In this document: positions 1 through 57,801 of the stretch, one piece after another
Layout: each line of letters begins with the position of its first letter
Numbering within the stretch: position 1 is the first letter of the stretch
Source of the DNA: Cenococcum geophilum
Lineage: Eukaryota
NCBI GenBank assembly: GCA_050273025.1
Contig: CP158635.1
Location: 15,128,001 to 15,192,000 of the forward strand
DNA: 64,000 bases
Direction of reading: 5' to 3'
Program-made: the position numbers and the translations under genes
The notes under the pieces: model-generated
What the model was told of the DNA's origin: nothing
Database searches by the model: none
The model's input: only the letters and a program-made list of their open reading frames with translations

Positions 1-1
1 T

Positions 2-2062: not shown

Positions 2063-3573
2063 TTACTGGAATTTATATTTGAATTTACGAAGGAGTGCCT
2101 TAGTGTGAAAGATATGTGGGTTCTTAAAGTTCCATCCTTTCCTTTTAGTTTCTCCTATTTATAACGTTATAAAATAAGTACTAATGCTTACCTGCTAACT
2201 AGAAATACCTTCCCTATCCCTGAAATTATCTACAACCCGTCCCTTACCTTTAGCCCCTATGTTTTCCTTCTTAGTCTCCTTTTTACTAATTGGGCGTTTA
2301 TAGTATATAACCTTATATCTCCTAAGGAGCTAAGTAAGCTCTATATTAAGCTAGGCTATAATAAGCTACCGTTATGGCTGAATTGGAAACTAGACGATAT
2401 TCCCGTGTTCCGCCGGTTAGTAAAGACTCTAAATAGCTGGACCATTTCTCGTAACGAACCTCTTTTATATTCTACCCTTGTACCCTAGACCAAAGGGCTT
2501 AGGGAGATTATTGGCTTTGCTTAGGTCTCTTGCCTATATTTGCTTAGATATGGTGCCGGAAAGGCATTTAATAAGAATAGTAAGCTCCGTTGCGACCGGC
2601 CTTTTTATTAAAAGAACTAAAGAGAAATATAGGCAATATTAGCAAGGCTATATAAAACCTAATAATGCAGCATGCCGATATACGAACGTTCTTAAGGTAC
2701 TACCTATCGCGGCGTATTATAGCAGACACATAGGCGATTATCTAAGGCCTTTAGCCCTAAGATATATTAATGCGGGCCGCTTATACTATAAGCTGTTTAA
2801 TTAATCCTTAATAACCGCGGCGGCTTATAACAGAACAATCTTTATTAGTTAACAATTATTCTACTATCCGTTCTCTACTTAAGTAAAGAAAGTAACTTAA
2901 ATACCGTTTTAAAGGTAAAGCTATAAAATATCTAAAGTATAAGGCGCTTAATGGCGAAATTAATAGCGAAAGGTAACGTTAGTGATATACACTTCTTAAA
3001 GATATTAAGAAGACTTGGGAATAGGAGCAACTAATACGTAATATTAAACTGCAGCTTACTGGCGATTAAGTTAATATAGAGGCTGGGGTAATAATAGATC
3101 TCTATAAAGGCATGTTATTAAAATAGAAGGAATTAGTTAATGCGGTTGTTAGCCTACTAGGTACTATATTTAAAGAGGAGATTTATTAACGCGATAGGGC
3201 TAATTATATGGTTATGCAATACTATAAGGTTAAGGAAGGTAGAATATACCCTACCGCTTTTAAACTTTATAAATAATCTAGTGGTTATATAATACTAGTT
3301 AAGACAATAGATAAGGCTAAGATTAACTCTTAAGTTAAAGCCTTAGAAGTAGTTAAAGTGTTAGTATATAGTAAGAAGAGGCTAAAGATATATTTTCTTT
3401 ATCTAGGTAACGAAAACCTATTAATTAAATAGCGTATATATTTGTTTTATACCCTAGGTAATTTTAGTAAATACTTTAAGTAGAAGTACCTTGCGAATAT
3501 TAGGGAAGGGGAAAAGATCTAATACAACCTCTATTAGGTTATTTTGGCGCATAAAATGCACTTATAATAATAT
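2063..3573 (+). pseudogene. DUF3435 tyrosine recombinase (Starship captain family) with C-terminal Cys/His region; RIP-inactivated and 5'-truncated; introns 2116..2202 and 2580..2632
   Basis: Translation gives LLEFIFEFTKECLSVKD/intron/NTFPIPEIIYNPSLTFSPYVFLLSLLF...DIPVFRR...IIGFA*VSCLYLLRYGAGKAFNKN/intron/NISKAI*NLIMQHADIRTFLRYYLSRRIIADT*AII*GL...LMRAAYTISCLINP**PRRL. These match DUF3435 motifs as I know them (PEIIxDPSL, YxLRYGAGKAF, MQHAxxxTFxxHY). Both GT..AG introns keep the frame. Stops are TAA/TAG as expected from RIP. Confidence 0.85.
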
Positions 3574-3994
3574 TGTTACGGACCTTGTATTGGCAGTAGT
3601 AGAACTACTAAGGAGAGATATAAATGGACTAGTAGTAGAAGTATGGGAGGTGCTGGAACCAGTTAAACTATAGGACGAGGGGTAGCCAAGTTATATAGCT
3701 AGTTACGTTATAAGTTCGGAACGTAAAAACGTAGGAACGTAGAAACGTAATATACTAACATACTAACGTACCAACGTACTTAATACATTTCTTAGGCGTA
3801 GTATTGTATATTTAAAGGACTACAGTCCCTACTTAAATAGTTCTCTTCTTTATAGTAAATCTTAGAATATAATTAGAGTTAATCTATTAGGTAACCACTC
3901 CATAAGTTATTATTATATTATTAACTTCTTATTTACCTATATACCTAGCCTATTAATAAATCTACCGTAGTTTCTACTATAAGGCTTTATTATA
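3574..3994 (+). repeat. 5' LTR of Gypsy-1 (421 bp)
   Basis: Direct repeat of 18628..19046; differences are mostly C/T and G/A transitions. Confidence 0.95.
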
Positions 3995-6900
3995 TATTTA
4001 CTACTATAGTTATAGTATTAATAAAGTTAAATAATATGCTACTAAAAGTAGTAGTTATAATAGCGTTAACGGCAGCAACTATTAGGATTAAGTAATAATA
4101 CTAGTATAGCAAATACTAACTCTTAGCTAGTTACGGTTGGACAACTATAGGAAATAGTTAATTAATTAATAAATAATAATAGGATACTTAAAGAAAGAAT
4201 TAATAGAATTAGAGTAGTAAAGGTTAAGCTACTATCTATTAAGCAATTCTTAGGGAAGAAGTTAAAGCTTAAGGGATTTCTTACATAAATGCACTTTAAG
4301 GTTACGTAAGAAGGAGTAAAGCTAGTAACGCCTATAGATTAAGTCGTATATATAGAATTGTTTCTAATAAAAAGGGCACTTAAGTAGTTTAAGCCTTATT
4401 TAACAGAGGTATAGGAAAACGGTATAGTAACTATTAATTAGGAGGTATAGTATATATTTACTAGTTAGAACGGGTTTGCGGAATACTTAATATAAATATA
4501 TAAAGACTTAGAGGTAACTACTATAGTAAAAAGAAAGCTTTAAAACCTAGTATAAAGAACTTTAGTAATTAAGTATATAATATAGTTTTAAATATTAGTA
4601 ATATAAGTTAAATAGAATAATAAGGCGCTTATAGTATGGTATAAATAGGGACTTAAGGCAAAAGTTTAAAATATAATTATCCTAATAGAGGATACGGATA
4701 CCCTTAAAGAGTTAATTAACTAAGTAATTAAGATTAATAATAGGATCTACTAGAGGGAATAGACTAAGAAGGGTTAGAATAAAGTTTTATAGTTATATAA
4801 GGCGTAAAGCACGTATTAACTAAGTTAGAAACTATAGTATAGTATAAAGCTAATAGACCTAAGCGGTACTAAAAAGGGCTATAAGAGATGGACTAAGCAA
4901 CTATAAAAATCTAGAGGATAAAAATTAAGTAATTAAAGGTCTAAGGAGCAGAGGCTAAATAAGGGATTTTAGTAGTAGAAGATATTTAGGCGGACTTTAT
5001 AATAAGAAAAATAGTTTAAAAATGAAGCTTATTTAAATTATAGGAAATAGGGTTATTTTACTAGAAATTATAAAGATAGTTAAAGTAATTATATGGTAAA
5101 GGAAACTAGACTAGTAAAAGAGATATATATATATATATAAAGGGATAATAGTATACTATAAGGAATAAAAGAGTATTTAATTAAGGGTATTACGTTTTAT
5201 AATAATAACATATACTAAATTTATAAAGATACTAAGTATGACGTAAGCTATTAGCTATAGGAGCTAAAATTATTAAAGTTTAAAGGAACTAATAAACTAT
5301 CTTATAGATTAGATATTAAGGATAATAAATTTTAATATAGGTAAAGTATTTAGCGATAATAAGGCAATAAAGGCAGCTTACTAAAAATGTATAGACCTTA
5401 GAATAGTTATATTAGAAGTAAAGACTAAAACCTTTATAGAATAAGGATTAGTAATAGAAATTATAACACTATTAGATACGGTATTTATCGCTTTATAAGA
5501 CGGAAGGAGAAATATCTAATAGAAAGGATTAAGTAAGTAAACAACTACTAGTGCTAGCTTACCACTTAATAGAGGCAAAAGGCTATAGGATTAAGACTCT
5601 TAAAATAAAATAAGACTAGCTTAAGGACCTATAATAGACAACAACCAATAGAGCAGAGTAGTAGCTTAGTTTAAAGATATATAAATAAGCTTAGGGTAGA
5701 GTTTCCTAAAGGTATAAGATTCTTAAAGTAAGATAAGTAAGATTTAAGACTTTTAAAATAAGATAAAAATACTATAGAAGCCTAGTTAGACTAAGGCTAG
5801 AGTACAGCTTAAGAAAGAAGTAAGCTTAGGACTAAGATTTTAGCAATAGAATAAGGACTATTAAAGAAATTGTAAGTAAGGCTTAGTAATAGGATTAAAA
5901 AGTTAATACTATAGTTAGAAAGTAAGAAGACTTTAAGGATCTACTTATAAGGTAAGTAAATAAAGAAACTATAGAAGAATTTAGATAGAGAATTATTATA
6001 TAGTAAGAATAGAAACTAGATAAGAAATCTAGTATACTAGGTTGTATAAGGAATAGAGCACCTATATAAAGAATTACTAATAGGCTAAAGGTAGAAACGC
6101 TAAAAGCAAAATAGCTAGACGAACTAGAATAGGAAGAAGACTTAGGAATTTTAATTAGATTTAAAGAATAATATATAAAGGGCTGTTATAATATAGTAAT
6201 AAGAAGATACTTCCTTATAGATAGATTGTATATACTTAGGGAGCTATACTAAAGGTAGTATAGGCAGCAATATAATAATAAGTAGGAAGATTTCTATATA
6301 TAGCTAGATAAATAGGTTATTTAGAACCACCTAATTATAGAGAAGGCTATAACTTATATTAAGGGAGCCTTAATTATAATATTAAAAGATCTAAAGGAAT
6401 AATTAGAGGACTAATGAAGTAAAAGATATATCTTAGTACCTGCGAATAAAGTTATAACGTTTAGATTAGATAGATAGAGGTTTAGACTTAAGGATAAAGA
6501 TAAGCTTAGAGTTAACCTAAAGCACCTAGTGTATTATATATTGGCGTAGATTATATATATAGTATATATAAAAATCCAAAAGAAAAGAATTGGAAATACC
6601 CTATAAGAATATATTAGGCGCTAAAAGAGTAGTAATACTAGAATGCTAAGTATATATATAAATAGCATTTAACAGAGGTCTAGGAGTTAGGAGGTTTAAT
6701 ATTTTAACTAAAAAAATTCCTTACGAAGAATGCTTAAATAGATAATAGTAGTAGGAATACCTAAAGAATATATATCTATAGTATATTAAGGATAAAAAGC
6801 GAACTAGGTATTGGCTAAAAAAGAAGCTAAGTATAATAGGATTAAGTAGCTAATAGTTGGGAAAAGTAAAGGCCTATAAAACTAAAGAAAGCTAGTAGTA

Positions 6901-8688
6901 AAGCCTTAAACCCTTAAAAGAATTTAAGGACAATACCTAAATTTATAAGTTAATTAGCAAGATTAGCAGTTTAAAGCACTAATAAATAGTAAAGTAATAA
7001 GAAACTATATCTTACTAGTAGTAGTAAAATAAATAGGACTACCTTATAGATAAAGGAGTATCTATATCTATTAGTTACAATTTTAGAAGATATAATAGCC
7101 TATAGAGGAGGCATTATTAACCTTAAAACAGGACCTATTTAGATAACTATTAAAGGGAGATAAATTAAGATATCTTTTAATATCCTACTATTAGGACAGG
7201 ATAAGGCAGTATAAAAAATACCTTAGTTATAGTAATATAATCTAAAGGTTAATTAGGTTATAGGTTAGGTTAATATTAGAGATATATAACAATATAAGAG
7301 GCGTATAGTAACTAAGTTAGTATAGTATTAAGTTAGAGCGATATATAAGGAAACTAAGAAAGGGTTATTCTATATACTAAGGAGATACTATAAATATAGT
7401 AAAAGCTATAGAGCCTAAAAAGCTGTTAAAGTATATAGTATAGAACTATAAGATAGAATTAGAACTAGAAATAAGCCTAAAGTTCTTTCCAATCTATAAG
7501 CTTACTAAAGAAGAGTTAAGAGCACTTAAAGAGTTTATCTAAGAAAACTTATAAAAGGGATATATTAGACTATTGTAGTTATTAGTAGGATATCTAGTAC
7601 TATTCGTACTAAAGAAGAATAGAAAACTTAAGCTATATATTAACTATAGATAGTTAAATAGTATTATTAGGAAGGATAGGTATTCTTTACCCTTAATTAG
7701 TAAAATCTAGAATTAGATAGGTAATGCGTAAATTTTCATAAAGATAGATCTAAGATAGGCGTACTATTAGATTAAAATTAAGGAAGGTAATAAATAAAAG
7801 ATAGCCTTTAGGTGAAAGGAAGGACTATATAAACTATTAGTTATATAATTTAAACTTATAAACGCATTAGTAATATTCTAAAAGAGGATTAATAGCGTAT
7901 TAGAAGAACACCTTAATAACATTATTATCTACTTAATAACTAAGGAAGAATATGAAGAATACGTTAAATCGGGTTTAAAGAGACTATAAGAAAAATAGAT
8001 GCTAGTAGTAATTAAAAAATGCAAGTTCTTTACTAGGAAGACCAATTTTATTAAATTTATTATTAGGCTAGGTTATATTAGTATAGACCTAAAGAAAGTA
8101 GAAGGTATAGTAAGTTAGCAAGAACTAGAAAACGTAACGTAGTTAAGGTTATTTTTAGGGGTTTATAAATACTATAGGAGGTTTATAGTATAATAGTTAA
8201 AGAATATTAAACCCTTTATAAGGCTTATAAAGAAGAAGGAACTATAAGTTTAGGGAAATAAATAGAAAAAATTATTTAAGGAACTTAAGGAGTTATTTAC
8301 CTAGGAACTAATTTTTAAAACCTATTAACCAGGATTAGGGATAGTTATAAAAATTAATATATTAGACTTTATACTAGGAGTATATTTACTATAGAAGTAT
8401 AAAAATGCATAGTATTTAGTAGCATACTATTGTTAGAAGATAATACTATTAGAGTTAAACTATAATATCTATAATAAGGAGCTATTAGATATAGTTATAA
8501 TACTTAAATAATAGAGAGTATTCTTATAAGGTATAGATAAACTATTTATAATTAGGATAGAATATAAAAACCTAATAGGGTTTTTAATAACAAAAGAACT
8601 TAACTAGAGATAGGTTAGATAGGTAGAGATACTTATAGAATACCATTTTAAGATTTAGTATACTAAAGGTACTAAGAATATAAAGGTA

Positions 8689-8993
8689 TATAACGGGACT
8701 AGCCCAGTTACAATAGGAATGTCTTAGTGAAACACTCGATAGATAAATTCTAACGCTTTAACCGAATTCTGCCAGATTAATTAAATTTTACTAAAGTCCG
8801 TTAAAGACCGCGTGCGTATATGCGCACGTATTGACCACTAAGCCCCTAACTATTTAATTATATAATTCCCTTATTATTCCCTTCTCTTCTTTACGCAACG
8901 TCCTCTTCTTAGCGAGAGCTATATACCCTTAGATTTAGATAGAATTTATATCGTTCCTTTAAATATTCCCTAAAGTCTCTTCGCGCCCTTATA
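8689..8993. mobile_element. Solo LTR (305 bp, different family) inserted in the Gypsy-1 RNase H region
   Basis: Termini TATAACGGG...CCCTTATA (RIP forms of TGTAACGGG...CCCTTACA). 5-bp TSD AGGTA at 8684..8688 and 8994..8998. Removal restores KGTKNIKVDVLSRK, the KGxxNxxADALSR motif. Confidence 0.85.
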
Positions 8994-11900
8994 AGGTAGA
9001 CGTATTAAGTAGAAAAGCTAAACTATAAAATAATAAGAAGCTATTAGGGGTAATACTACGCAAAGATAGTAATAGATTAATTAAGTATAATTATTCTAAG
9101 ATTATAGTAACCTAGAAATATAAGTTACCGGAAAGTAATTAGATAAGGAGAATTTAAGAGGCGTAATTTAAGAATTTAGAAATAGACTAGTATAAGTAGA
9201 GAATAAATATATATATCCTAAGGGGAATAGTAGAGGAGTTTATTAAAGATTTTTATAGGGGAATAATATAAGGACATAATAGAATAATAGGCTTAGTATT
9301 AAGACTCTAAGAGGAGTATATTATTTATAGAATCTAAGGCTTAGTAAGAAAAGTTATAAAGAAGTATCTAGATTGCTAAAGAAATAAGCTAATAAGGTAT
9401 AAGCTACATAGAGGACTATAGCCTATTAAGATACTAGAAAGACTATAGGAAGTTATATTATAGAACTTTATTATAAAGTTACTAAAGTTAAGAGATTCTA
9501 TTATTAGATAGGAGTATAATATAATCTTTATAATAGTAAACAAGTTAACTAAATAGGGCTACTTTATAGTATATATAGAAAAAATCTTAGCGGAAGATGT
9601 TGCTAGAATTTATATTAATAATAATAATTTATTACTTAACGTCTAATTCAGATCCCTATTAGGCCCACGCGGACTACTCCTTATATATATATAGGGAGAA
9701 AACTCTATTTAAGAAAACCCCGTAATCTATCTTCCTGCCTTTTAGGACTCGCCTATAAGGCGCCTATAAGTTACCTATAGTGCTTTTACTACCTTACTTT
9801 TTAGCCTTTTTAGGAACCACTGCTGCCGTAATAAGCCTACGGACGCGCTAGTATTATAAACTTTACTCTACTACTATAGAGTTATTAGGGGGCGCCCGTT
9901 ACTTACCCTCCTACCCTTTATTACTATTTCCCTTATAACCCGGAACTGGTTTAGTATATTTTAGCTAATAAGCTACTAGGTAACCGCCTTAAGACCTTTT
10001 TATATTAAGAGTAGTGTATTATAGTTCTCTGTGCTAGCTACTAAAAGTATTACTTCTTAGTTAGTACGTAAGGGGCATAATAGTATTATATATTTTAGTG
10101 TCTGTTTTAGCTAGCTATATTTATATCTTAGGCTACCTACTAGGATACCTACCCGGTAAAGCCAGTCTTTTAGTCCTATTATTCCTGTTCTTAAAAGTGT
10201 CGCTATTATATTTTCTGCCTTTATTAGGCCTTCTTAGAGCCCTAAAGTGTTTACCCCCTATAGCGTTAACTATGCTACGGCTTAGGTTCCTCTTACCTTA
10301 GTTAGCCTCTATACCTTTAACTCCTATATACCTCTTTAGTGTTAGTCTAACCAATATTATATTACGGTAGATAAGTTTCCTAGCATTCTTTTATACTCTA
10401 CTTTAGCTCCTTTCTCTTACTTATTATTATCTTTACTAGCCTTTTACGCCTTTCCCTTCCTCCTCTATATGGGCCTAGGCCCTAAAGCAGCACTATTTTT
10501 CTTCTGTTTTCTTTACCTATTTCTTTAATATATCTTCCCTACTTTAGGGTTATTAGTTTATTCTCCTATAGGGCGCCTTAGAGTCCCTCTATAGTTTATT
10601 TAGGCGTATCTTAATATACTTTATAATATTAGAGTTGCGTTTATTTTAGGCCCTTTATATTATAGCGGCTTTAATATATAGTTATAGGGGGGGAATATTG
10701 GCTTCCTTCTTAAGTAGTGCTGTAGCCGTTTGCTTATATCCGCCTACCATACTCTAAAGGTAGGCTATTTAGACCTTTTAGAGTGGTTTAAGGAGTGACT
10801 TAAGGGGGCCTTTCTTAGATTCTCTAATGGCCCAAATACTGGACTTATACGTTATGGTTGGCTAGATAACTACTATATATAGTAGGCGTAACCTCTAAAA
10901 GCATAGGCCCTATATAGAATTAACAATCCTAGATAATGCGATATACTATACTTAGCCCTTATAGGCCGCTTACGCCGCATATACGCTCCACCGGAGCTTA
11001 CTATCTACCTATACTCCTAATACCCGTAGGCCCTAAACTAGTTAACCCCTAAAGCCTTAAATGCGGATTATATGCTAGAGATCTACAAATTAATTACGTT
11101 TTCTTATAAAATGGATTAGCTGGTATTTCTCTAGTAAGAATTAGACTCTATATTGTCTTGCTTATTTTATATAGGTATTATAAGCTTTCTCTAGTATTTT
11201 GCAATTCTCTACAGCTAATGGCCTATATATAATTAGGTTTATATTATTAATAAAGCCTATCCCCTAGGTTGCCCCTTCCTTAAAGGAGTTAAGTAGGTTG
11301 CTTATAAAGAAAAGGAAGAGTATAGGCAAGAGGGGTAATCCTTATGGTATTTCTGTTGTAACTGTAATAGGGGGGCTCTAGTATCTACTAAAGACTAGTA
11401 ATGTTTCTTTCTAACCTATAAACCCTTAGATAAATTATATAATCCACTTTAGAAAGCCTTTTGCCCTAAAGATATATAGGAGACGCTTATAGGGTACGTT
11501 ATTATAGGCGCTACTAATATCTAGGCTAAGCATTAATACTATAAAGTCCCTTCGCATCGCCTATGTAGATTTAATAGTAGTAGCGAGTAGTGTAAGTGCT
11601 AATAGTGTTAAGCGGTTCTTTCTTACCCCTATTTAGCTCTATAGTAGTAGGGCGTGTTCCTTAGCCATATCTGCTATGCGGTCCGCTATTACCTTTTTTA
11701 GGATCTTACTAAGGGTATTTTTTAAGGTAATAGGGCGGTAGCTTCCTAGGATTAAGTAATTTGCTTTACCTTCTTTTTATAGGATAACCGTCGTTATGGA
11801 TCTTCTAAGTTGTGGGTAGTAGCCTATAGTAAAGCATACTCTAGCTATATTTATAAGCTAGGGTGCTATAAGTGGTCTATAGGTCTTTAAGGCCTTATTT

Positions 11901-14246
11901 AGAATCCTATCTAGACCTAGTACTATATTATTTAAAAGGCGGCTAATAGTTCTAGCTATTTCCTCTATTATTATATCTCTGTTAACCCATAGGTAAGTTA
12001 CCAGTACTTTACCTATAATATTACTAAGGTCTACTAAAGCCGGTTAGGGGAAGAACCTTTCTATAAGGATCCTTACCTTCTTATTATTATTATTAGTGGC
12101 CTATAATTCCCCTACTCTTTATAGGGGTAGTAGGTATAAGTCTTTTGCTAGTTACCCTGCCTTTTTCTTTGCCTATTTTGCTATAGCCCACAGGCCTTTA
12201 TTATAGGGGAGGCTTAGGTTAAAAGTATGCTTATTTATAAATCGTCTCCAGTTATTTCTTGCTTCCTTTTTTAGGGTATTCTTTAATTAGTTTTTTGTGT
12301 CTTTATATCGTCTCTTATCTTTAAGGTTGTAGCTGCTTAAGTATTTCCTTTTTACTTGTTATTGGCTAGCTATAAGAACCGCGTATTATACGGACTATGC
12401 GTATTACATATAAAGGCCCAGTTTAAGACCAGGTAGTGCTCTTTTAGCCTATTTTTAATTGCTACCTAGATCCTTTCTAGTCTTCGGTTAATTTCCTTAG
12501 GGGTGGTTAATAAGCCTTGCTTATTTAGTATTAGGTGGATTTCTTCTAGGTCTTAAAGTTATTATTTAACTATATTAAGGAAACTGTCTGCCTTAAGCAT
12601 CCTTATTACGTATCTTTTGCTATTTAGTTACGCCTTAATATCTAAATCTAGCTGTATCTGGATGGGGATATAGTCTAAGGTAAGTGCCTATTCTTCCTTA
12701 GGGTTATACCTTTTAAGTCTCTAGTATAGGCCTTCGTCTATAAATATAAGGTTAATTATACTTTTAGTAGGTCCTTATTGCCATATAATTACTCTAAGGG
12801 GGGTGGCTAGCTTAAGGCCCCAGGTATCTATAGCTTTTAGTAAGCACTTTACCTATTGTTTAGCAGCGACGTAAATACCCCCCTACCGCGGGTGGTAGAG
12901 GTTTATGTCTCCTAATAGGATAGACTCTATACCTTTGGTTTTAAGTAAGCTTATTACTAATATAATATTCTCTATTTATGGGAACCCTTTAACCCTAGGG
13001 TTATATACATTAATAATTTATACCGGTCCTCTATATGTCTAGATTATTATAACTATAATATCTAGATTAACTGCCTACTATAACTATAAGGATAGGCTAA
13101 TAGTCTTACTAATTATAAAGCATACGCGTATAGCTGCTTTTAGTTTGTATAGGAGCTGGAATCCTTAAGGGTAGTATATCGATTATATATAGGTATTATA
13201 GTATGGCTCTTATATAGCAAGGATATAGTATATCTTTAGGTCTAGACTGTCTAGTAAGGGCCTTATAAGACGGTGGTTTGTGTTGCTATAGTTATACTAT
13301 ATAATGGATAGGTAGCGGACCCCTAGTAAGGGTTCTTCGCCTTTCTATTATTTCTTGCTTTTTCTATTTCCACTTTCTCTAGGATATTTAAAACTTCTAT
13401 CTCTTATATCTGCACCCTAGTTACTACTTATATATAGAGCTTTTTATTCCCGTGTCTTATGTTTCTACTAGCGCTTCTATATCTAAATTTGTTATTATCT
13501 CTAGTTCTTCCCCTATTCTTACTGGTTAGCTATATACCCTTTAAGAGTTGGCTACAAATTTTATATTTACCGCGTTAAGTTTAATTCTTAACTGTCCCGG
13601 TTTTAAGCTTACTATAGCTGTCTATAAGGGTCTTCCTACAGGGCGTTCTCTCCCTTATATCCCCTGTGACCCTTATATCCCTATACGGTCTAGTAATATT
13701 ACATAGCGTTACTTCTAGCCCGTTAAGGCTTAGGATAGCTAGCCTAGCCCCCTAGTATTAAAGGTAGGAAATGCTAGAAAGGCACCTGCGCCCCCCTAGC
13801 TTATTACCTATTATTTCCATTTATATAACCTAGCATACAGTTATTCCCGTAGCTGTTAAGCCCTTACCTTTTATCTCCTATATTTAATGCAGTCTTCTCT
13901 CTTCTACGCCTTATATATACTTTAGTGGCAGTTTATATATTTTATTTAGTCTTAATTTAAGCAGTGTCTTATATTGTAGGGGCCTATATAGTGGCCGTAG
14001 CATACCTATACTACACATGTGGATTAGGTATGCCCCTATTATATATAGCGATAACATTATTCTAGGTGGAGTCTATAGTTATAGAGCCTTGCGTTATATA
14101 TAAGGCCATTTATAATAATACCTTTTTAAATAAGAAGTTTTTATATTCCTAGTATATATATGCTAACAATAAGGGAGCTATGCGTTTAACTAGCGTTTCC
14201 CTAGCAAGTCTCTAGCAACCCTTATATTCTTTTATTATTCTTATTA

Positions 14247-18519: not shown

Positions 18520-18627
18520 TAAAAATAATAAAGGTTATTAAATTAAGAATAGAAATACTATACCTCTAATAAATAACTTAAAGATAAGGGATATCTTTAA
18601 GGATAAAAATAAAGAGGAGGGGGATAG

Positions 18628-19046: not shown

Positions 19047-19081
19047 AATATGCTAATAATATATATAGTATAGTCTTATAG
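19047..19081 (+). pseudogene. Displaced C-terminal tail of the DUF3435 gene
   Basis: Removing the Gypsy element and one AATAT copy rejoins ...HKMHL**Y to ANNIYSIVL* in frame (RIP-corrected HKMHLQQHADDIHGTVS*-like), with the stop at 19079..19081. Confidence 0.75.
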
Positions 19082-46078: not shown

Positions 46079-46122
46079 TAATTCGATCGATTAATCGAAT
46101 CGTTTATAGTATTGGCTAGCTA

Positions 46123-46872
46123 GTCGTTGTCGTCTGGCTCTGGCGACGGTTGTCTGGTTCTGGCGACGGTCGTCTGGTTCTAGCGACGGTCGTCTGGCTC
46201 TAGCAACGGTTGTCTAGTTCTGGTAACGGTCGTCTAGTTCTGGCGACGGTTGTCTGGTTCTGGTAACGGTCGTCTGGCTGGCGACGGTTGTCTGGTTCTG
46301 GCGACGGTCGTCTGGTTCTGGTAACGGTCGTCTGGCTGGCGACGGTCGTCTAGTTCTGGCGACAGTCGTCTAATTCTGGTAACGGTCGTCTGGCTAGCGA
46401 CGGTCGTCTGGTTCTGGTAACGGTCGTCTAGCTGGCGACGGTCGTCTAGTTCTGGTGACGATCGTCTGGCTTTAGCAACGGTCGTCTGGTTCTGGTAACG
46501 GTTGTCTGGCTGGTAACGGTCGTCTGGTTCTGGCGATGGTTGTCTGGTTCTGGTGACAGTCGTCTGGTTCTAGCGACGATCGTCTGGCTCTGGCAACGGT
46601 TGTCTGGTTCTGGTAACGGTCGTCTGGCTAGCGACGGTCGTCTGGTTCTGGCGATAGTTATCTAGTTCTGGTAACGGTCGTCTGGCTGGCGACGGTCGTC
46701 TGGTTCTGGTAACGGTTGTCTGGCTGGCGACGGTCGTCTGGTTCTGGCGATAATCGTCTGGCTCTGGCAACGGTCGTCTGGTTCTGGCGACGGTTGTCTG
46801 GCTAGCGATGGTCGTCTGGTTCTGGTAACGGTTATCTGGTTCTGGCGATGGTCGTCTAGTTCTAGCAACGGT
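46123..46872. repeat. Minisatellite of mixed 20-bp and 18-bp units (CGGTCGTCTGGTTCTGGCGA / CGGTCGTCTGGCTGGCGA)
   Basis: Directly visible period-20 array with interspersed 18-bp variants. Confidence 0.92.
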
Positions 46873-47003
46873 CCTCTGCTGGCTGCCGTTCTGGTGCCTC
46901 CCTAGGTAGGGAGGATATAAAGAAGGAAGGAAGGGTAAAAAATAAGGTGGCTACATAGGGTAGAGGCACGTGTAGAGGCTATCGGGAATATAGCGGGGAC
47001 CCG

Positions 47004-47318
47004 ATGCAGAGCTTCGTGTAGAGCCTCTGTACGCAGAGCTTCTCGCAGAGCTTCTCGCAGAGCCTCGTGCAGAGCCTCTATACGCAGAGCTTCGCGCAGA
47101 CCCTCGCGCAGACCCTCGCGCAGACCCTCGTGCAGAGCTTCGTGCAGAGCTTCGTGCAGAGCCTCTGTACGCAGAGCTTCGTGTAGAGCCTCGTGTAGAG
47201 CCTTATGCGAAGCTTCGTGCAGAGCTTTGTGCAGAGCCTCTATGCGCAAAGCTTCGTGCAGAGCCTCTGTACGCAGAGCTTCGTGTAGAGCTTTATATAG
47301 AGCCTTATGCAGAGCCTC
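47004..47318. repeat. Minisatellite of 12-bp and 15-bp units (GCAGAGCTTCGT / GCAGAGCCTCTGTAC)
   Basis: Directly visible; the minus strand translates to EALH/EALRT repeats. Confidence 0.9.
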
Positions 47319-47331
47319 CAAGTAATAAGAC

Positions 47332-47790
47332 TATAAGATTGTATAAGATTGTATAAGATTGTATAAGATTGTATAAGATTGTATAAGATTGTATAAGATT
47401 ATATATAATAGTTAAATATATAGTATATAACTTTACCTTAATCGCACGTCAAGAAATATACAGTTAGCTTTTAAAGTTGTTAAGTAGGTTAACTGCATAT
47501 TAAGTTAGTTAAATTGTATGTTAAGTAGGTCAACTACATGTTAAGTTAGTTAAATTGCATATTAAGTAGGTCAACTGCGTGTTAAGTTAGTTAAATTGCA
47601 TATTAAGTAGGTTAACTGCGTGTTAAGTTAGTTAAATTGCATGTTAAGTAGGTTAACTGCGTGTTAAGTTAGTTAAATTACATGTTAAGTAGGTCAACTG
47701 CGTGTCGAGTTGGTTAAATTGCATGTTAAGTAGGTTAACTGCGTGTTAAGTTAGTTAATTGCGTATCGAGTTAGTTAAATTATATGTCAA
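47332..47790. repeat. 10-bp array (ATAAGATTGT x7) followed by a 20/40-bp array (GTTAAGTAGGTCAACTGCGT-GTTAAGTTAGTTAAATTGCAT)
   Basis: Directly visible at 47332..47401 and ~47478..47790. Confidence 0.88.
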
Positions 47791-50700
47791 TTACGCGAAA
47801 CGCGAAAACCAAAGTCTACTTGAATCTCATCCTGCGAATATTTTCCCGATGTACTAGGGTACTTAATTTTGTTAATAAAGCGCGAGTTAAATATACGGAC
47901 GCCTTGCGGGATATCTCTCTCCGTTATAACCGCAAAGACGCCCTTTTTAAGTAGTCCGTTAATCTCTTTGCGTCGTAAGTCCGTAAAAGGGGTTTCCTAT
48001 ACTAGAACTAATATATCTATAGGTGGAGATTGCCTTGCGGATATTCCTATGGAGGTTAGGTAATTTTCTATTACGGGGTTCTTAGTTATAGGGTACTTTT
48101 AGGGGCGTCCTCAACCGCGCTTTACGGTGGGTTTAGTAGGTTTAGTAAGTTCCTAGGGGACTTCTGGGGTAGGCAAGGGTGCTTTTAGTTTGTTTGGTTT
48201 AGCGGGTGCTTCTAGTTCGTCTAGTTCAATGTTATGGGTATATTTGGGCCGAAAATAGGGTTTTATAGACGTGCTTTTAAAGCTAGTCGGTCCGCTAGGG
48301 AGTTGTATATAGTAGGTCTCGTCTTCTACAGCTAGTAAATAGTAAGGTTTAGTTTAGTTACCGCTTTTACGCCATATAAGAACTTTAGAATTAAGTGGGA
48401 GGTTATGTACTAAGGTTATATTAGGTCCATTACAGTAGTGCAGAGCATTATTAATAGTTTATTTGGCCTGTAATTTAACTATTTCGGCTATTGCCTTTCG
48501 TATTATAGCTGCTTAATCCGTAACGGACGGGGTAGGAAGGTCCAGTTTGCTTATCCTTAGGTAGGCTCTATAGACTAAGAGGGTAGGTACTAGTCCGTTA
48601 GGGCCAGCGGTGTTATTAACGGCTTTTACGGCCATCTATAAAGCTAGTTCTTTTTAGATATTCTTATACTTGTCCGTAATAATCTGGTAAGCTTTTTATA
48701 AAGCTAGGTAAGCTTACTTAATAAGCCTAATAAACTAGTGCGCCTTAACTGGAACGGCTTTTATTAAAATAGCTATAGCTATAGCATACTATTGGAATTC
48801 CTTACTAATGAAGTTCCTACTGGCGTTGTAGGTAATATACTTAGGAGGTCTAAGGTATATATTAATCCAGTAGGTCTATAAAATGTCCTAAGTATATTTT
48901 ATGGATATATTTTACAACCAACGGGCGGCTTAATAGTGGGTTGCCTCGTCAATTATATATAATACTGGACTGCCGTTAATATATATAATGTCCACGTATA
49001 CTAAGTGGTTAAAGTTAAGGTCCTTATAAAGGGTGAACTTAAATCGGCCTAGGGAACGTCCGTATTTCTAGCAAAAAGAGCAGTATTTAGTTAGGTGGTT
49101 GATTGCCTTCCTATTAACATTATTATGTCCAGAGCGTTTAAGGACTCTATATAGCTTTTCGGCTAATGGGTAGCCGAAGTAGCGGTGTAGGTGGTAGATC
49201 TTAGTACTAGTAAGGTAGCACAGGTTATAGTTAAAAGATTCCTAAATGTAGGTCCGTAAAGTCTCTCCCTATATAAGGAACGGGTGTCTAAATTGTTATA
49301 TAATTGGTAAGGTAATATACTTACTTCCTAGGGCAGTTATAGGGCCAATTAGGGTGTCCGTAATATTATTGTAGTATACCTATAACTTATTTATATCCGC
49401 AAGGTAGAGTAAGAAAGGAGTGTCTACTTTTACTACGTGGAAGTTAACTAGGCCAATTAGAGTCTTAACTGCTACTAATCTAATTAATGCGGTTAAGCCA
49501 ATGCCGAACTAGACGTTTACGGCCCTAGTTTACGTAACGTCAATGTCCGTATTATTATTTATAGTATTTCTATATATAAGGTATTGTCCGTAGCCTACGG
49601 TAGACTTCTTAAAGGCACCTATATCAATTATAACACCGTAGAATTCCTTAGGGGTATAGCGTTCTGTAATAATATATGCAAATAGGTCCTGCTTATAATC
49701 TATAATGTTTATAATAGGGGTACTTATAGAATAGTTTTTGGGCGTAACTAAGTATATAAAGGAACGGTTGGCTAATATGGTTGTAATATTAAAGGCTTGG
49801 CTGTCTATAAAAGGTCTAAAAGTGGTTAGGAATATCTTTAAGGTCTCTTATTCCTAAGCATTTAAGTTAAAGTTAATTATAAGGGCTTCTATTAACTCGT
49901 TAAGAGACTCCTCTACCTCCTCTCCTTTATAGTTTAAGATAAACTAGTTAATCTAATTGTTAAATCTCTTCTTAGACTTATTGCGTTCTTCCTAGGTATA
50001 CCTTATAGACTAATATCCTTCCTTACCGTATACAAAATACTTCTAGCTGGTTTGTCTATAGGGGTATACTTTTGTATAGGAGTTACTGCGGGGGTTATAG
50101 GTAGGACTTAGTTGGTATAGGTACTGCTAGTAGTAGCGGCGGTCCGTAAAGTAAGCGTCTAAGTTAGTTTACGGGTTTTACAGGTCCGTAATAAAGGCTT
50201 AAGTACTACCTAGCGGGTTTAAGACTTTATACGTTATAATGGAGGACTATAAATCGTTAATAAGGCTAGTTAAGGTGTCTATAGGCTTATAATAGGTATA
50301 TTTACAGGGCTCTACTTCCTAGTAAGCTATAATAAGTTTGTTATATAGAAAGTCGTCTATTTAAAGCTTAATATTAAGGCCGTGTTATAGGTGCCGAAGG
50401 TCTTTAATAAGGATTTGCAGGTACTCTATAGTCGATTTTTCGGTATTCTTATTAATTACGGTCTATAACTTAGTCGCATTCCATTAGGTAAGGATATTAC
50501 GCCTATATTCTAGTCCTTTAAAGTAGTTATATATAGCTTTATATAGCTTATTAAAGGAAACACCAAGGGGGTTACTCTTAAGGTTGGTATAGTAGTGGTT
50601 AAGGGCTAGGCCGCGTAGTATAGTGGAATAGGCTTGGCTAAATTCCTATTTAGGAATATTAGCCTTCTAATAAAGGTCCGTAAAGATAGTAAGTTTAAAG

Positions 50701-52764
50701 TTAAAGTTATTGTTTTTACCGCTATACTTAGATTCGTTGGTATAGAGCTTAGCTAAGTTAGCTAGCTCCTTACCGTAGGTCTTTACTTAAGTGGGTTGCG
50801 GATTTATAACTTAGGCAGGTTATAGATCTGTGGCTTAGGTAATAAAAGGGTTTTATTCTATATTTTGGTTTACGGGGGTATTATAGTCCGTAGTTTGGGT
50901 TATGGGGGTATTATGGTCCATAACTTAAGTACTAGGTATACTTTAGCCCGTAAGATTAATTCCAAAATTACTTAGGTTTATAGGACGAATTTAGTTAAGT
51001 AGGTTAGGTATAAGGCTAGCGGTGCCGTTAAGTTTAGGAGAAGTAAAGAGTTTATTAGTGGCTTTAACCTAGTCTAGGATTTCCTCTTTAGTCTATTCCG
51101 TTTGGTCCTCCTTTTATATTATGTTGTATAAGGACCGTGTAATAGTAACTCGTTTATCCTTTTTAACCTATATACCTTAGTGACGTAAAAGGGTTTATAG
51201 GTTACGGATAGTAGTAGGGTTATAAGCCTTAAGAATAGCTTCCGTAAAGTCCGCAAAATCTTCCTTATATTACTCCTATAGGTCATTGTTTAGAAGCTTA
51301 TAGTGTCCGTATTTAAGGATTTTAAAATTAATATAGTTGTTAACGCCGTCCGTAGACGTAAGGTCGACTCCCTAACTCTACTTCTTTTAACCTTTACTAA
51401 TTTGCTTAGTTATATCTGCCGTATTATATAGCGTAGTATATCTATATAAGCTGTAGTGGGTAGTAGTAGCTTATAGCGGGTGGGAGAGGTCTTATAACGG
51501 TCCGTAAAATTGATTAGCGGGTCCGTAATAGTTTAAGAGGTCTTATAGTGGTCTGTAAAGGCGATTAACGGGTCTATAACGGTTTATAGAAGGGTAGGGG
51601 TTTTTGTAAGGTCCGAAGAGTTTTAAGGTTTAAGGGGGTTAAGGATAGGGGGTTCTGTAAAGGTCTATATTCGCGTTTATAAACTTCTGGTAAACCGTAC
51701 TAAGACTTAAATAAGTATATAGAGTTAGTAATAGGTCCGTAATCCCCAACTTCCGACCTTCTAGCAGGTTGTACTAGGAGTCTAAATAGGTGGTCGCTAT
51801 CGTATATCGCTTAGTAGGAGGTATTAAGTAATTGCTAATCTGTGTGCGCTTACTAATCAGTGTTTATATTAATTTAATAATATAAGGTGAGTTATATCCC
51901 GGGGCACAAAATACGTATAGTATCGTATGCTCTTTAGGATGGTAGTAACTATCAATTGTATAAAGCAGACTACATAGTCCATATACTAATGCGCCTCCCC
52001 CCTAATTAGTTAGTGCTTTAGGAGTGCACTAGACGCGTAAGTAGGTAGTTAGTGCACCGAACGCGTAAGCACGCGGTTAGTACGATAGGTGCTATAATTA
52101 TACAGATAGGTTTCTATTTATAAATATTACTAAATCGATACCGTATTTACTAGCTTAAATTTTAGAGATATACCTAATTCTATATATTTTATACCTTATT
52201 TTATTAAGGCTATATATTACTTATATTTACTAAGTTAAATAATATATAAAATATCTTATAACCCTATAACCTAGATATAGAGTTTTAGCGTATATTACTA
52301 GTTAGTTTCTTTTCTTAGATATAACTTCTAATAGCTTTACTAATATTTTTAAAGATTATTATTATAAATAAAGCTATATGGGAGCCCTAGTCCTAAACTA
52401 TATAAATAAACTATAAAGATCGAATCCTTATAGAGCTAGGTTCCTAGGTATTATTTATAGTTTTATTATAAAATAATATTATAAAAGCCTTATTGGGGAG
52501 AATAGTGGGTATATATTAGCGCTATTATAGCAAAATTATTCGTGCTAAAGAGCTGGTATAAATAGCTAAAAAAAAGAATTTCCTTATAAAATTATGTAAT
52601 AAGAAATTTATATTATAGAAAGATATTAAAAGATATTTTTCAAATAGGTACTATTAATTAATTAAGGAATTTTATAAAAAGAGCGAGCTAGGTATTTAGG
52701 CGTAGCGTCCTTTAAATATATAGCTAGGATCTTAACGGATTTAGTAGCTATAGCTTTAGTTTTA

Positions 52765-53400
52765 TAAGCTAAGAGGTTATAAAAGCTAGGGGCTTATAAG
52801 AGCTAGGGGATTCTATAAGCTAAGTAATATATAAGTAAAGTAGTTTAACTTAGCGCCCTCTAATTAATACCTAGAGTATAAATAGGGTATTAATAAGTTT
52901 AATAACTTTATAGCTTTAATCCTATAAGCTAGGCAATTATATAAGCTAAATACTTATAGGAGCTAGCCAATTTTATAAGCTAGGTAATTGTATAAGCTAA
53001 ATAATTGTATAAGCTAGGTAATTATGCGAGCTAGGTAATCCTATAAGCTAGATACTCGTGGGAGCTGGCTAATTCTATAAGCTAGGTGATCGTGCAAGCC
53101 TAGTGCTTGTGGGAGCTGGGCAATTATGTGAGCGGGGTGATTGTCCGAGCCGGGTAATTGTTGTGAGCGGGGTGATTGTGTGAGTGGGGTGATTGTGCGA
53201 GCCGGGCAATTGCGCGAGCTGGGCGATTGTGCGAGCTGGGCGATCGTGCGAGCGGGGTGATTGTGCGAGTAGGGTAATTGTGCGAGCTGGGTAATCGCGC
53301 GAGCTGGATAATTGCGCGAGCTGGGCGATCGTGTAAGGGTAATTGTGTAGGCGGCGTGATTTGACTTAGCGCCCTCTATTAACGCCTAGCTTATAAATAG
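52765..53400. repeat. 17-bp minisatellite (GAGCTGGGCGATTGTGC) in two modules, each closed by TTGACTTAGCGCCCTCT...TATAAATAGG
   Basis: Main array at ~52922..53335; closing motif at ~52846..52886 and ~53361..53401. Confidence 0.85.
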
Positions 53401-55248
53401 GAAGCAAATATTAAAAATATTAGAACTATAGAAAAAGGAAATATATAAGTCCTAGATTTAGAAATATTAAAGAAGTTTCTATATAAAAACTCCTATAAAC
53501 CTTATAACGATTTAAAGCCCCCTTATATATACTTAGAGAAGTTCCTATATAAACAGCCCTATAAGCGTAGCTATAAGTCTAAGCCCCTTTATATAACCTA
53601 ACTACCCCTTCTTACTATACTAGAATAAATAAACAACCGCTATATACTATAAGTAGAGAAATAGTTTAAATAAAAAGAAAATACTATAAAAAAATTATAT
53701 CCTTAAGATATAAATCTATAAATACTATAGTCTTAAATATGACTAATAGTTGCTAAGGTAGTATACGTCCTAGGTCTATAAGAAATTTAAAAAATTCTAG
53801 GTTATTAATATAGATTTACCTTTTATTATCGCTTTTAAGGTAGTGAATAAATTAATTTAAGTAGAAGTATAGATTATTGCAAATGCTTTATAGCTCGCTA
53901 TAAGTTAAGCAGGTAGAGACTCTAGTAGAAATAGTAAAATATTATTAGGATATAGAAAAGCCTATAAACCTTTAAGTACTAGCTGCTTAGCGCCTTAAGT
54001 AAAAGATCTTCCTTAACGTAAGGTAGATTAATAGAAGTTAATTACCGCCTATATAAGGCGGAGCGCTTATAAAGGGCTTAGCTAGAATACTAATTAAACC
54101 ACCCTATAGGCATTAATAGCTCCTTTACTATAGATAGGGGGTTAATATATAAGATTAACTGGCTGGGATAAGGCTATTACTTAGGCAGTATCTTACCCTA
54201 GGAAGGATAGGCGTTAGAAGTAGATTATATAATACTATTCCTACTAAGAGAGGTATTATTAGGGGTTATTATTAACTTTTAGTTCTAGTTTATAACTTTA
54301 TATAAACGCTCCTAAACCCTACTAAGGCATATAGCGTCCGTTAGGGATTATTAGCTATTTAAATTTAGTAATAGCTTAGCTAATAGCTACTACTAATAAT
54401 ACCTTACTTATAGATTGCTTTAGGCGCCTATAGTCTTAGGCGCAGATAATATAACCTAAGAGTAATTATAGCTACTAAATATTATACTATAGACACTATA
54501 TAGGGTGGAAAGGGGCGGCTAGTATACTCCGCCTTTCCCTTTTACTTTCTATTCTAACTCCGCCCTAGGAGAGAAATAGAATATAAATGTTATACTCCTA
54601 GTTCTTATATACTATTAAATTAACTTACCTTTAAACCTAACCCCTTATGATCTTTATAGGAATACTAAATATTATATATATTACCTTAACTAAGCTTAAA
54701 TACGTTGCTAATATAACCTATAGGTCCTTAATTAGTACTTATAAAAAATTACTATATACTACTGCCCCAAGGGTAATATACCTAATTATTAACCTATTAG
54801 AAACCTTAAATTATTTTAGAATTATATTAATAATAAAGACACGGTATCTAGTAGCGGGAAAAAGAAATAATTATAGCTTTCTAACCCTATATAGAAATAG
54901 ATACCTTATACGCCTACTTAAATACCTAATAAAGTTAATCCTTACAAAAATAATAATAATATAAAAGGTGATATATAAGAGGACACGGTTTAGGGAAGTG
55001 TATAAAAAAATACCTTAATTACTTTAAGGACTTAGAAGGCTATAGCAAAGCTAAAATAGACTTACTTAAGCTAATAGAGGACTATAGCGAGGCCAAGATA
55101 GACTTGCCTTAATTAGTAGATATAGTTGCAGTTTCTAAATACGTTTTGCCGGTAACTTAAGGTATATTTATAAGACCCCTATATTTATTTAGCAATACTA
55201 ATAAGTAAGTAGAGAATAGCTTAACGTAGTTTATAAGCGAGTGGTCCG

Positions 55249-56180: not shown

Positions 56181-56483
56181 CCCATGCGCCGTCACGAAAG
56201 GTGCTCCTTTTCCTGAGCCAACCAGAGGCTCTAGATTTAATTAAGTCTTGGCAAAATAAAGTTGTAGATTTAATTAATTAATTATAACCCAATATTATAG
56301 TAATAAAACTTAAATTTAATATATAATTCGACTCTAGGTTAAACAAGGTCTGCATCATTGGAAGAACGTTTGCAGCCCATTGTGGTGGTTTAATCACGAT
56401 AAGAAGCTATAGAGAGACGCGTGTTGATGTTTTGGTGTTCGCGCACGGGCCACAATAAAAGGAGCACCTTGACGGCGCATGGG
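56181..56483. mobile_element. Miniature TIR element with CCC termini and 2-bp TSD (fungal CACTA/CMC type), 303 bp
   Basis: TIRs CCCATGCGCCGTCA(CGAA)AGGTGCTCCTTTT / AAAAGGAGCACCTTGACGGCGCATGGG. Comparison with the opposite MITE arm shows AT duplicated. Confidence 0.75.
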
Positions 56484-57801
56484 ATACGGACCACTCGCTT
56501 ATAAACTACGTTAGCTAATCTTATAACATTTCTTAGAGTTATATCTCCCCTATTTAAAGTATTAACGATTTCTAATACTATGATTTCGCGTAGATAACTA
56601 AAGTATCTCGTCTTATGGTTGCCTTTTTATTATATAAAAAAGGACTTAAGATGTCTTTAAAGCCCTAGTTATAAATTATTTATATTTATATTTAGCCCTA
56701 TTATAGTAATATACTAGTATCTTACCTAGGTTTTAGCCGTAGATATACTACTAAAGAGACTTATATTATACTATACTAATAATCCCTATCTCTTTTGCCG
56801 TTATACTAAGATATATAAACTACTTAAAGATATTATAATAGAGATAGCTAAGAGGAGCAAACTGTGTAAGTAAGGAGATTAACTAGGAAAGGCATTAAAG
56901 GATTTATTAGAGGAGATATTAAGGAGAAGGGTATATAAGAAAAAGGTAGATCCTACTATAGATAGAGATCTTAAGAGGTCTAAGGTATAAGAGATTTTTT
57001 ATAGGGAAAGATGTTTATAATTATAATTTTATTTTTTAGCATTTATTAAGAATTAAGGCGTTAATTAGGATTTCTTTAGCTTAGTATTTTATTTCTATCT
57101 AGTTGCTTCTATATTAAGAATATCTTATTATTATTTACGTATAAAGGAATAAGTTTTTATATATTAAATTAAAGTTAGAGCGACTTGCTTATAGTATAGA
57201 GGTACGTTTTAAAAGTCTTTACTACTAAGAAATTAACTATCTTAGCTTACCGCCTTTTAAATCTAAATGTCCTCCTATTTTAGGGTGTAAGTTAACTCTA
57301 AATTTTATATTAATAGGGTAGGAATGTTAAAAATAAATATAGAATCTACCCCTTAATATTAGCCTAAGTTTTAAGTAAAAACAAGATCTTATTTTAAGAA
57401 CTAGATCCGATTTTAAGCACCGTATTTTAATTTTAAAGACTATATCCTAATTCTGGGTTCTAGCTTAAATTATAATCCTAAAAACTAGATCTAGTAAATA
57501 GCCTTATAAGCGTAGCTATAAGTTTAAGCCCCTTTACGTAACCTAACTACTCTACCCTACTATACTAAAATAGACGAATAACCGCTATATATAATGCGTA
57601 GAGTCTTCCCTTAACGTAAGGCAGATTAATAGGAGTTATTATACCGCCTATATAAGGCGGAGCGCTTATAAAGGGCTTAGCTAGAATACTAATTAAACTA
57701 CCCTATAACGCACTAATAGCACCTTTACTATAAATGGGGAGTAAATATATAAGGTTAACTGGTTAAAATAAGTCTACTACTTAAGCAGTATCCGGCTCCG
57801 T

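Follow-up and report, generated by a model that had tools for sequence, protein, structure and literature searches.

A RIP-mutated DUF3435 recombinase gene at the edge of an AT-rich block of Cenococcum geophilum: probable relic of a compact, cargo-less Starship-superfamily transposon

Introduction

A stretch of 64,000 nucleotides of the Cenococcum geophilum genome (assembly GCA_050273025.1, contig CP158635.1, positions 15,128,001 to 15,192,000 of the forward strand; hereafter the window) contains the remains of a gene for a DUF3435 tyrosine recombinase, placed where DNA of ordinary composition gives way to a long AT-rich block. The GC content lies at 0.49-0.51 before ~2000 and at 0.24-0.44 in all that follows as far as the window end, with a drop from 0.49-0.51 to 0.25-0.40 located at ~2000 and a single exception inside the block (0.54 at 46-47 kb). 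DUF3435 recombinases are the captains of Starships, transposons in which the captain lies at the 5' end and which carry direct repeats and sometimes terminal inverted repeats (Gluck-Thaler and Vogan, NAR 2024, PMC11162782). That survey treats Starships as giant elements for which low copy number is expected, gives a size range of 15-511 kb with a smallest annotated element of 15,020 bp, and places most insertion sites of the Phoenix and Prometheus families in AT-rich sequence. NLR (NOD-like receptor)-like genes are described as typical companions of Starships (Gluck-Thaler et al., 2022, PMC9156397).

An earlier note on this DNA had proposed that the recombinase gene is the captain, and hence the 5' terminus, of a decayed Starship, the ~15 kb backbone of which was multi-copy, was killed by RIP (repeat-induced point mutation) and then became a landing zone for transposable elements (TEs). 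Dead DUF3435 relics are common in RIPed transposon islands, and in this respect the feature in the window is an ordinary one. We propose that it is probably a RIP-killed, 5'-truncated copy of a compact, cargo-less and multi-copy DUF3435 transposon of the Starship superfamily, which was split by later TEs. This proposal is based on a comparison of the window with copies of the same family elsewhere, one of which is intact.

Results

The DUF3435 recombinase gene

For the Pfam scans, the window was translated with each stop written as X. Two of the six frames of 1900-4200, both on the plus strand, gave a match to PF11917 (DUF3435), and the other four gave nothing; the match spans nt ~2201-2576 in the frame of 1901 (profile positions 86-210, E 8e-31) and nt ~2632-3220 in that of 1900 (profile positions 212-417 of 418, E 2e-25). 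The gene thus has the domain and the inward orientation that had been claimed for it, the outcome that the earlier note had named as a refutation (a lack of PF11917 hits) did not occur, and the motifs it was said to keep are found as the strings LRY (LRYGAGKAF), MQHA and TFLRYY, with MQHADIRTFLRYYLSRR among them. Of 3542 candidates in a homologue search, four proteins reached E<=0.001, and each has PF11917: a metagenome protein of 313 amino acids (aa) with 65% identity (P0001), a 'C2H2 finger domain protein' from Lepidopterella palustris (P0002, 717 aa, 45% identity), a protein of Coniosporium apollinis (P0003, 734 aa, 42% identity) and a fragment of 353 aa (P0004).

Premature stops, 26 in all (0 in 19, 2 in 129 and 24 in 314 codons), show the gene to be dead. 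Two conserved GT..AG introns account for the gap at 2117-2200 and the change of frame at 2588-2631, and what looks like a frameshift at ~2576-2632 is not damage. The gene is also incomplete, because its homology to the full-length relatives begins at 2062, which corresponds to about residue 255-260 of the 717-734-aa proteins (tblastn with P0002 and P0003), so that the first ~250 codons are missing. Its final 10 codons are found at 19052-19081, beyond a long terminal repeat (LTR) element that starts at 3574. An earlier placement of the gene at 2063..3573 was therefore nearly exact at its start, where the gene is nevertheless truncated, and wrong at its end.

Colinear copies separate the element from later insertions

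When metagenome contigs were scanned with P0001, 105 pattern matches turned up and nine loci were confirmed, three of which (L001, L002 and L003) belong to the same family as the window gene, with 82.7-88.4% nucleotide identity. Window 2062-3573 is 82.7% identical to L001 1593-3092, 88.4% to L002 9401-10912 and 86.5% to L003 6606-8117. L001 is an entire 12.7-kb contig with a GC content of ~0.5, and L002 and L003 are parts of 99-kb and 85-kb contigs with a GC content of 0.30-0.47.

Beyond the recombinase gene, the alignment shows which parts of the block belong to the element. The last codons of the window gene are colinear with L002 and L003, and window 19047-20358 corresponds to L002 10908-12209, 52739-53946 to L002 12207-13364 and 53919-54322 to L002 13753-14160; L003 preserves the same order, with window 19047-20553 followed by 52673-53559. 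L002 therefore connects window 20358 to 52739 (at its own 12209/12207), L003 connects 20553 to 52673 (9620/10013), and the ~32 kb in between (20554-52672), being absent from both colinear copies, are an insertion and not cargo. The retroelement that separates the last codons from the rest of the gene (element A in Table 1) is likewise an insertion; it is bounded by a 5-bp target duplication, AATAT, at 3569-3573 and 19047-19051, where L002 is uninterrupted and has a single AACAT (10908-10912). Instead of the proposed ~15 kb, the backbone that is colinear with other DUF3435 copies amounts to ~4.7 kb (2062-3573, 19047-20553 and 52673-54322), to which can be added a 0.3-kb fragment at 57494-57801 that is cut off by the adjoining retroelement. 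Later TEs did land within the element, as the earlier note had supposed. A tandem array of 17 bp, with a 51-bp higher-order unit (TTGTGCGAGCTGGGTAA-like), is kept in all three RIPed copies (window 52917-53329, where it was found by Tandem Repeats Finder, L002 12387-12780 and L003 10405-10902) and is not found in L001.

An intact relative and the ends of the family

L001 lacks the RIP signature (indices 1.04 and 1.10) and contains an intact recombinase gene of five exons, which matches the full PF11917 profile (1-418) over three exon open reading frames (ORFs) and ends in a C2H2-like cysteine/histidine motif that was read by eye and has no Pfam hit. The gene starts ~0.5 kb inside the left end of the element and reads inward; it is followed by ~2.9 kb in which no gene was detected. 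The whole element would measure ~5.9 kb, opening with CTACCTTAAAC and closing with ...GAAATTCTAC.

The left end is common to all three loci (L001 176, L002 7984, L003 5189) and has the sequence CTACCTTAAACAAT...GGCGACTTGGCCGCCGTTTTT, behind upstream flanks that are unrelated: L001 reads ...TTAATTTA and L003 ...TTAATAA directly before CTAC, and L002 reads ...CTATATTT before TTAC, which is a RIP-altered form. L001 and L003 are then colinear in three blocks (175-3344 = 5188-8357, 4629-4938 = 11437-11747 and 4952-6036 = 15356-16478) up to a right end that is sharp in both (L001 6038, L003 16478-80), the likeness stopping at ...GATGAAATTCTAC where L003 reads ...ATTCTAT. The sequence of L003 past this point is unrelated to that of L001. 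Thus L001 has CTAC at both ends and L003 has CTAC on the left and CTAT, altered by RIP, on the right. A 4-bp CTAC bracket of this kind is what would be expected for recombinase-mediated integration at a short crossover site. A comparison by eye of the outermost ~30 nt on either side of the L001 element made no terminal inverted repeats evident. The 3' half varies, with 1.3 kb in L001 where L003 has 3.1 kb, and the L003 unit reaches ~11.3 kb, including a 3.6-kb insert and the longer middle part.

Probes of 50 nt for both termini, allowing RIP changes, found the left end in three loci and the right end in two, and had no match in the window. Instead, the window copy is joined to its unique flank at an internal site. 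Homology to the full copies starts within a junction (first row of Table 1) at which the corresponding internal site of L001 reads GTTTTAC/TGGAATT, and the first ~1.4 kb of the element, comprising its terminus and the ~250 codons, are missing. As the window copy is without its own 5' end, the edge of the block is not an intact Starship terminus, contrary to the role it had been given. The comparison of three sites gives a weak indication that the truncation may have taken place between two YTAC-type sites.

RIP and copy number

Every segment of the block has RIP-type indices, with TpA/ApT of 1.3-1.9 (flank 0.62) and (CpA+TpG)/(ApC+GpT) of 0.25-0.52 (flank 1.34). Against the unmutated L001, the window copy has 318 differences over 1752 aligned bases, comprising 294 C>T/G>A changes, 13 reverse transitions and 11 transversions, and the C>T changes prefer CpA (167 of 222 available sites hit) over CpG (90/198), CpT (20/232) and CpC (17/196). 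The window element is thus a RIP-mutated repeat, and once the RIP-type changes are set aside it is ~98.6% identical to L001. The other two copies have the same character, with RIP-type changes making up 233 of 248 differences from L001 in L002 and 173 of 190 in L003. In these respects the earlier statements, that the block is RIP-mutated and that RIP killed the element, hold.

That the element is multi-copy is also borne out, by the three related loci and by public sequencing data. Of 24 rows for public runs, 20 contained part of window 1-4000, and contigs of runs X1, X5, X6 and X14 were aligned at a likeness of at least 85%. In X1 the contig depth, summed over look-alike contigs and so not a true copy number, is 3000-4900 over 2137-3471 as compared to 70.7 on the flank (40-70x); in X5, X6 and X14 the excess over the relic is 20-95-fold, and the differences are nearly all transitions. 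In each of the four runs, the family is thus seen to be diverged and multi-copy. A 16-kb contig of X1 spans window 1-2132 with zero differences; a contig of X6 breaks off at 2027 and one of X14 at 2055, with 27 and 233 further letters, respectively, that are off the window.

Search for cargo and accessory genes

The auxiliary Starship domains that the earlier note had suggested searching for, DUF3723, ferric reductase, patatin and NACHT/NB-ARC (NLR), were sought in six frames of 1900-4200, 19000-25100, 31712-38151, 38100-43500, 52000-54200 and 54193-57800, and in the minus frames of 9619-17002 and 24996-31222; none was found in these parts. Four gene-like relics had been named in the backbone, but Pfam at E<=0.1 gave no hit in any of the 18 frames that cover them and the backbone, and two of them (20100-20600 and 53440-54480) fall in the 3' part of the element, which has no detected gene. 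The corresponding part of L001 (3300-6100) has no Pfam family in any of its six frames. In a consensus of the three RIPed copies with the RIP changes reversed (deRIP), the longest ORFs of the 3' part are 103 aa, in its first piece, and 141 aa; as the same procedure re-opened only 155 of 314 codons of the recombinase gene, used as a control, these ORFs are uninformative because of low power.

Genes downstream of L001

Two genes lie 1.8-4.6 kb downstream of the right end of L001: a HeLo and SesB gene at 7868-8671 on the minus strand (E 5.5e-53) and a TPR_10/TPR_12 repeat gene at 10668-12689 on the plus strand. Both are of the NLR/cell-death type.

Other features of the window

On the GC-normal flank, the ORF 503-1765 is the C-terminal exon of a Zn2Cys6-type transcription factor, the relatives of which carry PF00172 and PF04082 (best 62-66% identity, from several classes). 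Rfam and tRNA scans of the window gave zero matches each, so that a target site of the 5S or tRNA type is absent.

By self-blast, the block consists mostly of nested repeats with LTR-like pairs (Table 1). A second, inverted copy of element A (17003-19047 = 59845-57801, 5893-8671 = 63317-60492 and 5319-5835 = 64000-63485) runs off the window end, and so the AT-rich block continues beyond the window; position 57801, at which the earlier note had ended the feature, is not its edge, since AT-rich DNA runs to 64000. Within the nest, the minus frames of 24996-31222 and 31712-38151 show by eye a gag-PR-IN-RT order (strings resembling a zinc knuckle, protease, integrase and reverse transcriptase), and we would type both elements, by eye, as copia-like. 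Pfam found no family at E<=0.001 in 24996-31222 (minus frames), 31712-38151 or 54193-57800, and the first two of these illustrate that real relics can escape a domain search when the DNA is RIPed and its stops are written as X. About 10 kb of RIPed nest DNA are of unassigned origin (20554-24995, 38152-43449 and 52105-52672).

Three further observations concern the composition and repeats of the block. A GC-rich (~54%) minisatellite block at 45697-47762, with units of 18, 20/58/292, 12-87 and 41 bp, lies within the LTR-bounded element 43450-52104 and has a composition that is not RIP-like, in contrast to the surrounding DNA. At 41739-42251, two 115-bp direct repeats (95.7% alike) flank an island of 50-53% GC amid DNA of 22-30% GC, and this island has zero Pfam, Rfam and tRNA matches. 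Finally, repeats of ~325 bp at 23727-24050, 24504-24827 and 55826-56153 match one another in both orientations and are palindromic, foldback-like or similar to miniature inverted-repeat transposable elements; one palindromic copy sits between both fragments of the 3' part of the DUF3435 element.

Table 1. Positions of the DUF3435 element and of the insertions in the window (copy coordinates as numbered in each locus)
Feature	Position	Strand	Remarks
Junction of unique flank and truncated element	2056..2066		TAATCGTTTAC; homology to full copies from TTTAC (2062-2066); four-way comparison
DUF3435 tyrosine-recombinase pseudogene	2062..3573	+	5'-truncated; PF11917, nucleotide identity, tblastn
Pseudogene structure	2062-2116, 2117-2200, 2201-2587, 2588-2631, 2632-3573	+	exon piece, intron, exon, intron, exon
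LTR-bounded retroelement A	3574..19046		10 codons ahead of recombinase stop; L002 uninterrupted there
LTRs of retroelement A	~3574-3992 and ~18628-19046		self-blast pair, 87%
Further insert within A	9619-17002		minus frames; LINE (long interspersed nuclear element)-like and pogo-like relics: RVT_1 6e-14, DDE_1 1e-26, HTH_Tnp_Tc5 2e-9
Recombinase gene tail	19047..19081	+	AATAT target duplication, then ANNIYSIVL-stop (relatives: HADDIHGTVS-stop)
3' part of element, first piece	19082..20553	+	85.6% to L002 11100-12209; 84% to L003 8300-9620
Insertion nest, ~32 kb	20554..52672		with solo-LTR piece of A 21047-21807 and palindromic repeats 23727-24835
LTR-bounded elements of the nest	24996-31222, 31712-38151, 43450-52104		self-blast repeat pairs
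3' part of element, second piece	52673..54322	+	80% to L002 12207-13364; 81% to L002 13753-14160; 73% to L003 10299-11094
Second short 3'-region fragment	57494..57801	+	76% to L002 12962-13071; 87% to L002 13846-14038; 88% to window 54007-54192
Second, inverted copy of retroelement A	57801..64000	-	cut by window end

Discussion

The reading that we prefer, that of a truncated and RIP-killed copy of a compact, cargo-less DUF3435 transposon, has to be set against several points. The right end of the family is read from two copies (L001 and L003), the window lacks both termini, and the two ends were placed where the copies cease to be alike. L002 and the window diverge from L003 past the tandem array, so that the 3' half is variable and its full extent provisional, and the HeLo/SesB and TPR genes lie within a few kb of the proposed right end of L001. 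The contig depths on which abundance is judged are sums over look-alike contigs. Some ~18 kb of the block (4201-9618, 17003-18999, 43501-51999 and 57801-64000) are outside the domain scan, as are the plus frames of 9619-17002 and 24996-31222. Moreover, Pfam with X at stops is weak on RIPed DNA, and as it was blank on two elements that look retroviral by eye, the lack of cargo domains is only moderate evidence. The assignment to a Starship family is also a limit. The closest named relative, P0002, is OCK73812.1, which supplement S3/S4 of PMC11162782 gives as a 'tyr' gene of fam05, named Prometheus in Table 1 of that paper, and placing our family in fam05 is a provisional step by nearest named neighbour (42-60% identity to the L001 product). 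What can be kept of the earlier proposal of a Starship-like element is thus the DUF3435 recombinase with its nearest named relative in fam05, and not a giant or cargo-bearing nature, given that the intact relative is ~5.9 kb long and has one gene.

A possibility which we regard as unlikely, although it survives best among the alternatives, is that the compact form derives from a larger Starship family and has been stripped of cargo and deleted internally. The RIPed copies would then descend from the short derivative, cargo-bearing full-length members would exist elsewhere, and L001 itself might extend through the HeLo and TPR genes. The differences in the 3' half, both between L001 and L003 and between L002 or the window and L003 after the array, may be consistent with this, as may the NLR-type genes just past the proposed end of L001 and the fact that the Prometheus family, as surveyed, includes cargo carriers (PMC11162782). 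However, the likeness of L001 and L003 stops with base precision on the same 4 bp that open the element, L003 continues beyond that point into sequence unrelated to L001, and no longer member was found among the nine retrieved loci.

The earlier proposal itself, that the block represents the ruins of a giant Starship that carried cargo and has its captain at the 5' edge, and that the unassigned ~10 kb together with DNA past the window are its RIPed cargo, is in our judgement quite improbable. It draws on the inward-pointing recombinase of captain type at the edge of the block, on a nearest named relative that is catalogued in a Starship family, on nest DNA without assigned origin in a block that goes past the window end, on the HeLo/SesB and TPR genes downstream in L001, and on the low power of Pfam on RIPed DNA. 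Against this, L002 and L003 pass straight from 20358/20553 to 52739/52673, which makes the 32 kb between them an insertion; no DUF3723, ferric reductase, patatin or NACHT/NB-ARC domain was found in 18 backbone frames, in 12 further frames or in the insert frames scanned; the right end of the family is sharp and lies ~5.9 kb from the left one, with a matching 4-bp repeat; and the window copy does not have the element's own 5' end. A contig depth tens of times that of the flank is also at odds with the low copy number expected of Starships, the smallest of which in the survey is 15,020 bp (PMC11162782).

It is very unlikely that the family is a classical fungal Crypton (CryptonF) and not of Starship type. 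A length of ~6 kb, one intron-bearing recombinase gene, no terminal inverted repeats and a short terminal direct repeat would all suit a Crypton (PMC3212892, PMC13465315), and one study at first annotated DUF3435 repeats as Cryptons (PMC9156397). However, the L001 protein has PF11917 only, with no GCR1_C at E<=0.01, and GCR1_C is the domain that defines CryptonF (PMC3212892); moreover, the nearest named relative lies inside the Starship recombinase tree, to which CryptonF is the outgroup (PMC11162782). That the relic is a decayed host gene which was never mobile, as the name 'C2H2 finger domain protein' of its database relatives might suggest, is barely tenable given a unit of ~3.2-4.2 kb that recurs in unrelated flanks at three metagenome loci with one shared left end, a contig depth tens of times that of the flank and a RIP spectrum that implies duplication.

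If the window does hold a truncated copy of a compact DUF3435 transposon, its history may have run as follows. A member of the family would have integrated directly behind the Zn2Cys6 transcription-factor gene, and its first ~1.4 kb would then have been lost at a TTTAC microhomology, between two YTAC-type sites, through either the recombinase acting on an internal look-alike site or an ordinary microhomology deletion. An LTR retroelement would next have split the element ten codons ahead of the recombinase stop, and the ~32-kb nest of further transposons would have split its 3' part. The family would have reached tens of copies, so that RIP mutated it.

We also put forward, tentatively and with more doubt than the reading above, that the family is a natural minimal Starship, by which we mean an autonomous, cargo-free element of ~5.9 kb with a captain of the Prometheus clade, a YTAC crossover and tens of copies. 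If this were so, a captain with less than 0.5 kb of 5' and less than 3 kb of 3' sequence would be a complete mobile unit in nature, and Starship lineages could shed their cargo and switch to a high-copy lifestyle. The cut of the window copy at the internal TTTAC beside TAATCGTTTAC would then be the footprint of a captain that acted on an internal site resembling its own end. Such a compact natural member would offer a small, sequence-defined substrate on which to study the cis sequences that a captain needs, and would bear on how cargo-carrying elements arise from, or collapse into, Crypton-sized ones. A narrow literature search gave no report of a captain-only or cargo-less Starship family, which does not by itself show such a variant to be unpublished. 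There is also a lesson for annotation, as a match to DUF3435 at the margin of an AT-rich block is by itself no marker of a buried giant element, and colinear copies are needed to tell the backbone from later insertions.

Comparison with known systems

Among known systems, the Prometheus family (fam05, clade 1; Gluck-Thaler and Vogan, NAR 2024, PMC11162782) is similar to the element described here in having an inward-reading DUF3435 recombinase near the 5' end, short direct repeats at its ends with no long terminal repeats, and an AT-rich, RIPed and TE-rich setting. It differs in that L001 is ~5.9 kb long and has no second gene, where the same survey gives 15,020 bp for the smallest Starship and medians of 27-97 kb for the families, and in that tens of copy-equivalents are seen here where low copy number is expected; the window copy is, in addition, truncated and dead. 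Taking the features of Starships one by one, the captain position is found in L001, ~0.5 kb from the left end, and not in the truncated window copy. Mobilisation of cargo was not seen, as there is no gene other than the captain in L001 3300-6100 or in the window backbone, with limited power on RIPed DNA. Nor do size and low copy number agree, with ~5.9 kb for L001, ~11.3 kb for L003 and a contig depth of 20-95x that of the flank across the four runs.

Two other categories of the Starship literature come close. The 'degraded Starship' and 'Starship-like' regions of Gluck-Thaler et al. (2022, PMC9156397) resemble the block as RIPed, TE-invaded regions with a DUF3435 relic, but as defined there they need co-located DUF3723, ferric reductase, patatin-like or NLR genes, none of which was found in the scanned parts of the window. 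Family 11 of the Starship recombinases is, according to PMC11162782, a superfamily member without a known cargo-mobilising element; the nearest named relative here, however, belongs to fam05 of the same classification.

CryptonF elements (Goodwin et al., 2003; Kojima and Jurka, 2011, PMC3212892) are like the present family in their length of a few kb and in having a single tyrosine-recombinase gene with introns, no terminal inverted repeats and terminal direct repeats of 4-6 bp that reflect the crossover site. They are defined in the latter work by a recombinase with GCR1_C and 6-bp terminal repeats, whereas the domain here is PF11917, with a C2H2-like C-terminus (by eye) in place of GCR1_C. 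The family thus combines the recombinase and end architecture of a Starship with the size, single gene and abundance of a conventional, Crypton-like transposon.

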